Shown in pieces: positions 28,615 to 34,611 of a stretch of 34,611 nucleotides of DNA. The stretch's first letter is position 1. Every line of letters begins with the position of its first letter. This DNA is from a virus, in the UHGV virus genome UHGV-0165227; one strand, written 5' to 3'. The notes beneath the pieces were generated by a model. The model worked only from the letters and a program-made list of their open reading frames with translations. It searched no databases and had not been told where the DNA came from. Made by a program: the position numbers and the translations under genes.

Positions 28615-28941
28615 ATGGATGCACAAGCACGCCGCCGCGAACGTCGCGCAGAGAAACAGGCTCAATGGAAAGCAGCAAATCCCCTGTTGGTTGGGGTAAG
28701 CGCAAAACCAGTTAACCGCCCTATTCTCTCGCTGAATCGCAAACCGAAATCACGAGTAGAAAGCGCACTGAATCCGATAGACCTTACGGTGCTGGCTGAA
28801 TACCACGAACAGATTGAAAGCAACCTGCAACGTATTGAGCGCAAGAATCAGCGCACATGGTACAGCAAGCCACGCAGTGAAATGGGTGTGACTTGTGTTG
28901 GTCGCCAGAAAATGAAATTAGGCAGCAAACCACTTATTTGA
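28615..28941 (+). CDS. N: Antiterminator N
   Basis: Arg-rich N-terminus MDAQARRRERRAEKQAQWKAANPLL, lambda N-like throughout. Confidence 0.9.
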   Translation: MDAQARRRERRAEKQAQWKAANPLLVGVSAKPVNRPILSLNRKPKSRVESALNPIDLTVLAEYHEQIESNLQRIERKNQRTWYSKPRSEMGVTCVGRQKMKLGSKPLI

Positions 28942-31544: not shown

Positions 31545-31559
31545 TCATTGGGAGAAAAT

Positions 31560-32027
31560 ATGATCACTTGCAAAAAATGTGGAGAGAATAAACCACCTAA
31601 TGGTTTTTATCCTAGAAATAAGGTGTGCAAGGAATGCACTAAAAAACGAGTAACTGAATATCAAAAAGGAATAGGAAAGCTAATACATAATAATGCTTGT
31701 AAAAAATATAACAAAAGCGAAAAGGGCAAGGTTGCATTAATCAAAGCAAGAGAGAACTATCTGGAATCTCATCGCCAAAGACAGCAAGCAAGATGGTCAG
31801 TCAAACGAGCAATTAAATCTGGTAAGTTATGTAGACCAACAACGTGTCAGAAATGCAACAGCAAATGCCACCCAGACGCTCACCACTGCGATTACAGTAA
31901 ACCTCTTGAAGTGATGTGGCTATGCAAAGCATGTCATGTTGAATGGCACAAGCACAACAAGCCAATATATCCAGACGAGGAACCAGTAACTCTCCCCTTC
32001 CCTCGTCACGCTATTCACGCAATTTAA
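31560..32027 (+). CDS. HNH endonuclease (Cys-rich, zinc-binding)
   Basis: C-terminal HHCDY...LCKACHVEWHKHN HNH motif with paired CxxC; GGGAGA RBS before ATG 31560. Confidence 0.7.
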   Translation: MITCKKCGENKPPNGFYPRNKVCKECTKKRVTEYQKGIGKLIHNNACKKYNKSEKGKVALIKARENYLESHRQRQQARWSVKRAIKSGKLCRPTTCQKCNSKCHPDAHHCDYSKPLEVMWLCKACHVEWHKHNKPIYPDEEPVTLPFPRHAIHAI

Positions 32028-32347: not shown

Positions 32348-32515
32348 ATGAGAGGACTTGCATACAATCCCGGCATTCTTCCGGCAGAAATGATTATTCG
32401 CCAACGCGTAAAGCCAATGCCATCGAGAGAGGAATTGCTTAAGAGAAATTCTTTTCCTTCAGTGAATCAAAACAAATATCTGAATGAGATGTGGCGCAAA
32501 GGAGGCAACCAGTGA
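32348..32515 (+). CDS. Small hypothetical protein
   Basis: GAGGA RBS 7 nt before ATG 32348; 55 aa. Confidence 0.3.
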
Positions 32516-32832
32516 GCAAGATTGACTATCAGGCACTGCGTGAGGCGGCAGAGAAAGCAACTAAAGGAAGCTACATCGTAGGGCATACATCTGTTAACCA
32601 GCACGGCAATTTAACAGGAGTTTTTGTTTGTCAAAAATGGAAAGGAGAACCCGGTGGCGTGATTGCAGAATGTCATGTTAACTGCCTGGTTAAAACAGAT
32701 GTTCAGGCTTATGCAAACGCTGAATTTATTGCTGCCTTTAATCCAAATGTTGCGCTGGCACTACTGGATGAACGGGAAAGAAACCAGCAATTTAAGCGAA
32801 TTAACGTGGTGCAGCCACAATCAGCACCATGA
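32512..32832 (+). CDS. Hypothetical protein, possibly Ead/Ea22-like C-terminal domain
   Basis: GTG start overlapping previous stop (GTGA) with GGAGG RBS; motif [19 protein letters not shown]. Confidence 0.35.
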
Positions 32833-32985: not shown

Positions 32986-33039
32986 GGTGGGCGGTTCGCT
33001 ACTATACAAGAGGGGTGTACCCCGCGAACTTAACCCACC
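32986..33039 (+). other. Predicted nested stem-loop immediately upstream of the NYN-domain gene
   Basis: GGTGGG (32986-32991) pairs with CCCACC (33034-33039); GTTCGC (32994-32999) with GCGAAC (33024-33029); inner GGGG-TGTA-CCCC hairpin (33012-33023). Confidence 0.35.
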
Positions 33040-33057
33040 ACCCCTTTCCTCCCTACT

Positions 33058-33705
33058 ATGAATTGCAAATCAATGACCAGAAAATATGCCATCATGATCG
33101 ATGCTGGTTTTTTGCGTGCAAAATTAGGCACAAAAGATAAGCCAATCGATGCGGAAGTAATCAAAGTATTTGTAGAAAAACTAACAAAAAGGCCTGAACT
33201 AGAAGGCATGATTTTGCACCGTGTTTATTATTACGATGCAGAGCCGCTTACCGGAATACAGACGCATCCGATTAGTGGAGAGAAAATTGACTTCTCTGAA
33301 ACAGAAGTTTCTAAAAGAAATAAAGCCATGCTTGATGAGTTGAAAAGAACTCCTTTTTTTGCAGTAAGACTTGGAGAGACAAACTTTCGAGGATGGAAGG
33401 TTGACCCATGGGCATTAAAGAGCAGTGACTCTAAAACTTCTTCCATTAATGCCTACAATGTTAAGCCTAATGTTCAGCAGAAAGGCGTTGATATGCGTAT
33501 TGCGTTAGATATGTCATCAATGTCATTAAAAAAACAGGCAGATATATATGCTTTGGTGACTGGTGATTCAGATTTTGTTCCAATTATAAAATTTGCCAGG
33601 AAAGAAGGCCGACAGATTTTTCTATACACACTGGGACATAGTGTCAAGCAGACGATGTATGAACATTCCGATTTGTTAGTGCCAGATACCATGGATAAAT
33701 TGTGA
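33058..33705 (+). CDS. NYN-domain (PIN-like) predicted ribonuclease
   Basis: NYN signatures: N-terminal YAIMIDAGFL strand and GVDMRIALDM...VTGDSDFVPII; start uncertain (33058 or 33073), no clear SD. Confidence 0.6.
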   Translation: MNCKSMTRKYAIMIDAGFLRAKLGTKDKPIDAEVIKVFVEKLTKRPELEGMILHRVYYYDAEPLTGIQTHPISGEKIDFSETEVSKRNKAMLDELKRTPFFAVRLGETNFRGWKVDPWALKSSDSKTSSINAYNVKPNVQQKGVDMRIALDMSSMSLKKQADIYALVTGDSDFVPIIKFARKEGRQIFLYTLGHSVKQTMYEHSDLLVPDTMDKL

Positions 33706-33807
33706 TTGGAGCTAGGAATAGGTTAGCCGCGCCTTAATAGATGATCCATTCTGGCAGAAAAAGAACACAAAGAAGTAGCCTAAGTGCCCCCAACAGCATT
33801 TACACCC

Positions 33808-33940
33808 AGGCCCTCATTGCGGGCCTTTCTATTTACAGAGATGGCTGAGCAGAACGCCAAGAACTGACAACCTGAACGAATACGAACCCGCCTAGTGCGG
33901 GTTTTCTTTTATCTGAACTCGCTACTGCGAGTTTTGTTTT
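33808..33940 (+). terminator. Three consecutive intrinsic-terminator-like hairpins (33808-33834, 33885-33910, 33916-33940)
   Basis: Each is a 6-7 bp GC-rich stem followed by a T-tract; second and third are tandem near-repeats. Confidence 0.5.
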
Positions 33941-33952
33941 ATGGAGATGATT

Positions 33953-34252
33953 ATGGTCTGTTCAACATTCAACCCTCTAACGTTACAGAAATACCAGCCA
34001 GACCCTGAAGATTTATGCTCACTGTGTGGCGGAAATCATGGCAAAGCCGCCATGATCGAATGTAAGGACAAAATCCACATATGCCTTAATTGCGTTGATG
34101 TCCTCGTTGATATCAAAAATGAGAGAGAAGATAAAAAGCGTAGCGAGGCTGTTCGCGCCTTAGATTCATGGATGCGAGATGGGTATAGTGCCGCGCAAAT
34201 TTATGACTTAGCAATATCAAAAGGCGAAATACCAGGAGTGCGTATCGAATAA
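33953..34252 (+). CDS. Cys-rich (zinc-ribbon-like) hypothetical protein
   Basis: GGAG RBS 7 nt before ATG 33953; CSLCGG...ICLNC paired-Cys motifs. Confidence 0.4.
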   Translation: MVCSTFNPLTLQKYQPDPEDLCSLCGGNHGKAAMIECKDKIHICLNCVDVLVDIKNEREDKKRSEAVRALDSWMRDGYSAAQIYDLAISKGEIPGVRIE

Positions 34253-34360
34253 GACGTAACCAACATTCGAATTGAAGAACTGAAAGAACACCAAGCCGCC
34301 TGATGGCGGTTTTTTATTGCCTGATTTGCAGGTTCGATTCCCTATTCGGAGATAGCACTC

Positions 34361-34561
34361 ATGCAACACGAACTACAACCTGATTCACTGGTTGATTTGA
34401 AATTCATCATGGCCGATACTGGCTTCGGTAAAACCTTCATCTATGACCGGATTAAGTCCGGCGACCTGCCAAAAGCCAAAGTTATCCACGGACGCGCAAG
34501 ATGGTTATATCGTGACCATTGTGAATTCAAAAATAAGCTCTTAAGCCGCGCCAATGGGTAA
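34361..34561 (+). CDS. xis: AlpA/Xis-family excisionase-like DNA-binding protein
   Basis: Winged-helix AlpA pattern IMADTGFGKTFIYDRIKSGDLPKAKVIHGRARWL; at prophage edge where int would follow. Confidence 0.65.
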   Translation: MQHELQPDSLVDLKFIMADTGFGKTFIYDRIKSGDLPKAKVIHGRARWLYRDHCEFKNKLLSRANG

Positions 34562-34611
34562 AATAGCGGGTAAAATATTTCTAACATCTAAAAAACACCA
34601 TTCCAATCAAT

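Follow-up and report, generated by a model that had tools for sequence, protein, structure and literature searches.

Immediately upstream of the excisionase gene of the lambdoid prophage considered here lies a short reading frame for a cysteine-rich protein, and its location raises the question of whether this protein takes part in excision together with its neighbour or belongs to some other process, and of what kind of protein it is in the first place. The window (the whole stretch of 34,611 nucleotides of the virus genome UHGV-0165227 that was analysed) is an Sf6/P22-like (Lederbergvirus-type) lambdoid prophage, with the late and structural genes on the minus strand and the early-left operon on the plus strand. 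This operon includes the genes for a lambda-N-type antiterminator (28615-28941, plus strand), a CI-like repressor, a Rad52-type recombinase, an SSB and the Abc2 anti-RecBCD protein, and it ends, in this order, with a truncated Ead/Ea22-like gene, a gene for an NYN-domain protein, the gene studied here and a TorI/HkaC-type xis gene (34361-34561, plus strand; 66 aa, the counterpart of Sf6 gene 18 and of HkaC of HK620). Positions 33880-34330 are 100% identical to a prophage of E. coli DETEC-E601 (NZ_CP116176.1), where xis is followed by the csc sucrose-utilisation genes of the host, as attP lies between xis and int in Sf6 and HK620. Because of this order in DETEC-E601, the end of the window (34554-34611) has to be near the prophage/host junction, and int must sit at the other end of the prophage.

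The reading frame runs on the plus strand from the ATG at 33953 to the TAA at 34250-34252 and encodes 99 amino acids, with two CxxC pairs, C22/C25 within CSLCGG (residues 22-27) and C44/C47 within ICLNC (residues 43-47). Direct reading of the sequence places a GGAG ribosome-binding site at 33943-33946, 6 nt 5' of this ATG; two further in-frame ATG codons, at 33941 and 33947, both lack a comparable site. Since the 99-aa form is also the PGAP call in the 100%-identical E. coli prophage and the alignment of homologues begins at the Met of the same ATG, 33953 is the likely start codon; a 103-aa form is used in the records of Sf6 and 933W. An earlier, sequence-only reading of this DNA had proposed a 99-aa frame with two cysteine pairs and a GGAG site, located between tandem hairpins and the excisionase gene, and all of these elements are present as it described them.

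That the frame is a gene rather than a product of chance can be judged from its relatives. The protein matches phrog_3680, a family of unknown function, with E=3e-69, and is 97-99% identical to the products of Sf6 gene 19, 933W L0063 and VT2-Sakai H0073/ECs1162 (Z1426), which occupy the same position 5' of xis and are, with essentially no difference, the same gene; many further ORFs of Stx phages show the same degree of identity (97-99%), and all copies are labelled hypothetical. Homologues in Enterobacter and Klebsiella prophages are 50-60% identical. Between the E. coli and Enterobacter copies synonymous sites are saturated, while the cysteine-rich N-terminal domain (see below) is nearly invariant, and dN/dS between two Enterobacter copies is 0.19, i.e. 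the gene is under purifying selection. On the strength of the phrog_3680 match, the homologues in other genera, the saturated synonymous sites and the dN/dS ratio, we regard it as a real gene, more than a chance ORF. The family is a small one: an exhaustive HMMER search of 1.84e9 representative proteins returned 33 matches, and when 185,579 species genomes were searched, the family profile detected just 2 loci, which is why we call it narrow. Searches of the literature yielded no functional study of Sf6 gp19, 933W L0063 or ECs1162; no paper mentioning L0063 was found, the name has 0 occurrences in a review on the modelling of exo-xis proteins (PMC8614690), and ECs1162/Z1426 was encountered in a CGH table only. 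The gene itself has already been catalogued, and the finding comes down to a domain of a known kind that a phage protein carries by itself.

This domain occupies the N-terminal half. PF06689 (zf-C4_ClpX) is the sole Pfam match of the protein, and at 15.8 bits (E=0.014) the single sequence remains below the gathering threshold of 27 bits; its best matches in NCBIfam are ClpX equivalogs, and all the top matches in a sequence search of the PDB are ClpX zinc-binding domains. The relatives match more strongly: PF06689 was detected in 14 of 16 family members, with the highest score in P0048 (43.3 bits against the cutoff of 27, E=3.3e-11), and the nine distant matches from the exhaustive search that were scanned (P0053, P0055-P0058 and P0060-P0063) all clear the threshold, with 41-133 bits. 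There is, moreover, a chain of homology that involves the full length of the protein. It leads from the target to P0046, with which it aligns from end to end, the C-terminal tail included (E=2e-14), and from P0046, for which a precomputed record lists PF06689, to the zinc-binding domain of E. coli ClpX, with 46% identity, a common heptad LCNDIIR and E=6e-9. Comparison of the close family with ClpX-type domains by hhalign gave a probability of 97.35% and E=1.6e-11, with a template alignment that was built in part from proteins retrieved by our own profile. A profile of the domain constructed from family members alone detected 1OVX in the PDB with E=1.3e-8. The top of that list is taken by ClpX sequences, seven in number and from different entries, and the next match has E=0.1. 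Members of the cluster also carry the UniRef label 'ClpX-type ZB domain-containing protein', which was assigned independently of the present analysis.

The pattern of conservation agrees with a metal-binding role of the cysteines. When the wider family is aligned, no column is invariant except those of C22, C25, C44 and C47; neither C3 nor C37 is conserved. The spacing C22-x2-C25-x18-C44-x2-C47 is identical to the CxxC-x18-CxxC of E. coli ClpX, and the two domains share about 34% identity over 38 residues, including the motifs CS-x-CG, I-C-x-x-C-V-D and D-I. The reference descriptions of this domain are its entries in Pfam (PF06689, zf-C4_ClpX), PROSITE (ClpX-type ZB) and the PDB (1OVX, 2DS5-2DS8). 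There are differences as well. Of the residues of the ClpX pocket, F16 and I46 correspond in the alignment to L24 and I54, so that the hydrophobic character is kept, whereas several residues of the ligand-binding strands are altered (Y34 of ClpX is replaced by H42 and A29 by E36) and the G-P turn is lost, with C/G-K-D in its place. Specific to the family studied here, in comparison with ClpX, are a lead-in Y-Q-P-D-P-E-D-L and a helical tail of approximately 45 residues. ClpX combines its zinc-binding domain with an AAA+ ATPase, whereas the protein of 99 aa has the domain in a standalone form; a ClpX unfoldase proper is ruled out, as there is no AAA+ ATPase module.

Structure prediction is compatible with this assignment. 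The AlphaFold2 model of the domain (pLDDT 89.5) comprises strands 23-25 and 31-33 followed by a helix 34-50, and in the model of the full-length protein (pLDDT 76.7) the long helix is prolonged to residue 75 (helix 45-75) and a further helix, 80-88, is added. The former shows a zinc knuckle, a short hairpin and a long helix and is consistent with a treble-clef finger as the predicted fold. In Foldseek searches of the PDB with the domain model, ClpX entries rank 2 and 8, with 2ds5_A superimposing at TM 0.59/0.69, rmsd 2.2 Å and 34% identity, at E>0.1, which is usual for a domain of 40 residues. No significant match was obtained by Foldseek for the domain model in the PDB or for the full-length model in the PDB and a viral library, and for this reason the assignment rests on the sequence profiles. 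They place a ClpX-type C4 zinc-binding domain at residues 22-57 (34016-34123, plus strand), with C22 (34016-18), C25 (34025-27), C44 (34082-84) and C47 (34091-93) as the predicted zinc ligands. The sequence-only reading had predicted zinc binding, which is supported by the four invariant cysteines and the confident model, but had recognised no family, and here it has to be corrected. For the identity of the gene and of its domain taken together, our confidence is high.

The C-terminal helical tail, residues 55-99 (34115-34249, plus strand; ...EREDKKRSEA...IYDLAISKGEIPGVRIE), has a different distribution. It contains a hypervariable stretch between a conserved motif ERDDKKR-EA and a conserved end IYDAIAAGKIPxIRID, and a search with a profile of the tail retrieved many prophage proteins of 70-100 aa from Enterobacteriaceae with unrelated N-termini (among the tail-bearing proteins are P0054, P0059 and P0066-P0095). 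The tail matches the C-terminal ends of phrog_7798 and of phrog_3483, and Pfam has no family for it. Distant relatives of the zinc-binding domain possess, in place of the tail with IYDAIAAGKIPxIRID, a second type of tail, characterized by LYDAGYRK. By these comparisons the tail is a separate module, which lambdoid prophages exchange between many small early proteins.

The surroundings of the gene give an indication of when it is expressed. A scan for terminators (7 sites, against 1.6 expected from shuffles) placed two terminator-like hairpins with T-tracts directly upstream, at 33884-33904 and 33915-33934, both of which fold as hairpins and the second of which reaches the ribosome-binding site, and another one, also with a T-tract, between the gene and xis, at 34293-34312 (all on the plus strand). 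The first hairpin differs in sequence from its counterpart in Sf6 and 933W (stem AACCCGC...GCGGGTT here, AATCCTCGC...GCGGGGATT there), with the GC-rich stem and the T-tract retained. That the stem is kept despite the differing sequence suggests selection for a functional terminator or an RNA structure ahead of the gene. The second hairpin is nearly identical in Sf6 and 933W. An Rfam scan of the hairpin region gave sub-threshold matches only (STnc130 with 24 bits against a cutoff of 55, Trp_leader with 20 against 41), and no sigma-70-like promoter was found by scanning 33000-34611. Given the tandem terminators upstream, the result of the promoter scan and the lambda-N-type antiterminator encoded by the phage, the layout indicates that the gene is probably expressed from antiterminated pL transcripts alone, at an early stage of infection or induction. 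An autonomous moron is ruled out, for the gene has a terminator downstream but no promoter-like site, and two terminators directly 5'. We take it for an authentic accessory gene, not an essential one, which lies at the distal end of the early-left (pL, 'exo-xis') operon.

Directly 3' of the stop codon, at 34253-34303 on the plus strand, comparison with the translation of lambda orf55 (lambdap35) reveals the last 16 codons of that gene, in frame (DVTNIRIEELKEHQAA, followed by a stop), overlapping the terminator at 34293-34312. Remnant and terminator adjoin or overlap a region that is annotated as 'bsq2 boundary sequence' in Sf6. The remnant piece is far more widespread than the full cassette: among 5426 complete E. 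coli genomes it is present in about 2490, and the cassette in 310 (about 6%).

What would a free ClpX-type domain do in a phage? The reading we prefer is that it mimics the N-domain of ClpX. ClpX uses its zinc-binding domain, a dimer, for docking: the degradation of lambda-O requires this domain, and lambda-O, SspB, RssB and trigger factor are bound in its hydrophobic pocket (F16, I46) (PMC7804408). The mimic would capture peptides, adaptors or substrates whose usual docking site is the ClpX N-domain, or else it would pair with the N-domain of ClpX itself, and in either case the consequence would be an altered ClpXP-dependent turnover of phage or host proteins; a lambda-O-type replication initiator, for instance, could be stabilised. 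The phage encodes an initiator of the lambda-O family, alongside the lambda-N-type antiterminator; what counts against the mimic is that the N-terminus of this O protein (MSNLATV...) differs from that of lambda-O. Our literature search retrieved no paper on 'ClpX-type ZB' or on a phage-encoded mimic of the ClpX zinc-binding domain. There are parallels with another unfoldase: mycobacterial ClpC2 is reported to be a decoy of the ClpC1 N-domain (PMC10030653), and SPO1 gp53 is described as a ClpCP adaptor-like phage protein (PMC6873191). According to these two reports, Clp proteolysis can be rerouted by a phage protein or by an N-domain of a Clp unfoldase that is present as a free copy or mimic; the unfoldase (ClpC), the fold and the organisms are different, which makes this an analogy, not a homology.

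The explanation in its entirety (an accessory gene, two modules, expression by read-through and the mechanism of ClpX mimicry) is put forward as a tentative one, and the mechanism of mimicry, taken by itself, we infer with considerable doubt. Its most specific version gives lambdoid phages, among them the major Stx2 phages of O157:H7, a free decoy of the ClpX N-domain, which during early lytic growth would intercept adaptors and substrates or cap the N-domains of ClpX, and would thus stabilise ClpXP-labile proteins such as O; in this form we consider it unlikely, if worth stating. Were the decoy real, it would tune replication, induction and possibly toxin output, and would represent a phage counter-measure against substrate selection by ClpXP, of which we found no report. 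It would also be a new route by which phages control host proteolysis, and it could bear on the replication and induction of Stx prophages. Sf6-like phages carry the gene, as do the Stx2 phages 933W and Sakai Sp5, which are of clinical importance; some 6% of the complete E. coli genomes have it, as noted above, and its annotation is still 'hypothetical'; recognition of the ClpX-type domain turns it into the subject of a specific and cheaply testable hypothesis, namely interference with the docking of substrates and adaptors to ClpXP.

The alternative that survives best, in itself a possibility we would not bet on, accepts the same fold and gives it an unrelated target: the ClpX-like finger would be a dimerisation or peptide-binding scaffold for some other protein of the host or the phage, with no effect on ClpXP, and it might serve host takeover, anti-defence or the modulation of the lysis-lysogeny decision, like other exo-xis proteins, some of which affect lysogeny and induction (PMC8614690). 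The changes on the ligand-facing side described above (Y34 to H42, A29 to E36, and the G-P turn) speak for this alternative and mean that the ligand of the protein may differ from that of ClpX. Fingers of the PF06689 type occur in varied architectures, including kinases and multi-repeat proteins, so that the ClpX-like fold may be a general module for interaction or dimerisation that is unlinked to ClpXP. Besides, the presence of the tail in many small prophage proteins with other N-termini suggests a common function of the tail combined with variable heads. On the other hand, documented functions of the ClpX-type domain are known solely in ClpX, the hydrophobic positions of the pocket are kept, and the data point to no alternative target.

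Less probable by far is a regulator that would bind DNA or RNA with its zinc finger and helical tail and control the early-left genes, int or xis. A small zinc-finger protein encoded in a regulatory region naturally evokes such a role, and lambda offers a model for it in Ea8.5 (PDB 2M7A), a small zinc-containing protein with a homeodomain/zinc-finger fold that was proposed to be a transcription factor (PMC8614690). Ea8.5 and orf55 occupy in lambda the same slot between ea22 and xis, and it is the 3' end of that very orf55 which survives after the present gene. However, the zinc module of Ea8.5 is C-terminal, whereas ours is N-terminal, and membership in the Ea8.5 family is ruled out by a probability of 0.5% in hhalign and by the lack of any Ea8.5-family entry among the PDB sequence matches. 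The protein has no HTH or other DNA-binding family match, the zinc-binding domain of ClpX binds protein and not DNA, and the surroundings of the finger are acidic to neutral (PDPEDL). A TraR/DksA-type or HTH regulator was likewise rejected, as no matches to these families were found, and so was a known anti-phage defence protein, no PADLOC family being matched at E<=0.01.

As to the question posed at the outset, the sequence-only reading had suggested a factor that sets the direction of recombination or regulates excision, working with Xis and Int, and the gene does directly adjoin xis here, in Sf6 and in 933W. We nevertheless consider this role very improbable, as the comparison of related phages dissociates the gene from any particular module. 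A Xis 100% identical to the one in the window occurs in 19 phage records. Six of these, representing three phages (Sf6, Kapi1 and IME10), are among the listed matches for the gene, while two others that were inspected directly, HK620 and HK633, carry in its slot an eaG-like gene (hkaD) and no copy of the gene, even though their int/attP module is of the same type as here. Conversely, the cassette is shared with 933W at 98% nucleotide identity (about 33899-34318), but in 933W and other Stx phages it adjoins an unrelated xis/int pair; in Enterobacter prophages the homologue is followed by one extra ORF and then by a xis of the HTH_17 type, and more distant homologues lie 1-4 genes away from xis, with distant relatives 2-4 genes from the integrase gene. 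Co-variation of the gene with one int/xis/att module was accordingly not observed, either in HK620 and HK633 or in 933W and the Enterobacter prophages. The terminator at 34293-34312 separates the gene from the xis unit, and the cII-dependent promoter pI, in the position annotated in the maps of Sf6 and HK620, falls downstream of the gene. The protein itself does not resemble such factors: no match to an HTH family was found at E<=1 in Pfam and NCBIfam, and in the model a long helix comes after the zinc finger, in contrast to the winged-helix/HTH structure typical of Xis, AlpA and TorI. Because the identical Xis can do without the gene, the cassette can stand beside other xis/int genes and a terminator intervenes, the adjacency is, on this comparative evidence, positional, reflecting the far end of a mosaic accessory region between exo and xis, and not functional.

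The last possibility, that the ORF is decaying or non-functional and is merely carried along between mosaic boundary sequences, deserves hardly any credence, for although it is bracketed by boundary sequences and the orf55 remnant, and although some derivatives are truncated or fused (P0039, P0035 and partial proteins), the cassette is intact in the 310 E. coli genomes mentioned above as well as in the main Stx2 phages and Sf6, the cysteine ligands are invariant, and both the dN/dS of 0.19 and the saturation of synonymous sites between genera argue for a maintained protein.

Some further observations were made in the course of the analysis. P0039 (257 aa) and P0035 (96 aa) are recombinant proteins with differing N-terminal regions, both containing the motif EAEPVAW, and their joins fall inside the zinc-binding domain, with loss of the first CxxC, or at the tail; to judge from these joins, recombination breakpoints occur within the gene. 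A copy of the gene with 96% identity is located on a contig of 2749 bp (JAJXBQ010000315.1) that was binned in a 'Segatella copri' MAG, and this contig is almost certainly a fragment of an E. coli phage mis-binned into a Bacteroidota genome. Within the window, the Ead/Ea22-like gene (32491-32832) is truncated and is treated by PGAP as a pseudogene in the identical E. coli prophage. The NYN-domain gene that follows it (33058-33705, 215 aa) encodes a predicted RNase, has its own terminator-like hairpin at 33808-33826 and gives a weak match to the PADLOC family 'NYN' (E=2.3e-5); it may represent cargo that was inserted, or a gene of the defence type, which Sf6 does not have at that position. Finally, the window contains a second cysteine-rich ORF (31548-32027; 159 aa, with a TTG start and several CxxC pairs), a homologue of Sf6 gene 26, which has no Pfam family above threshold and matches phrog_2340, annotated as 'endonuclease', with E=5e-40.
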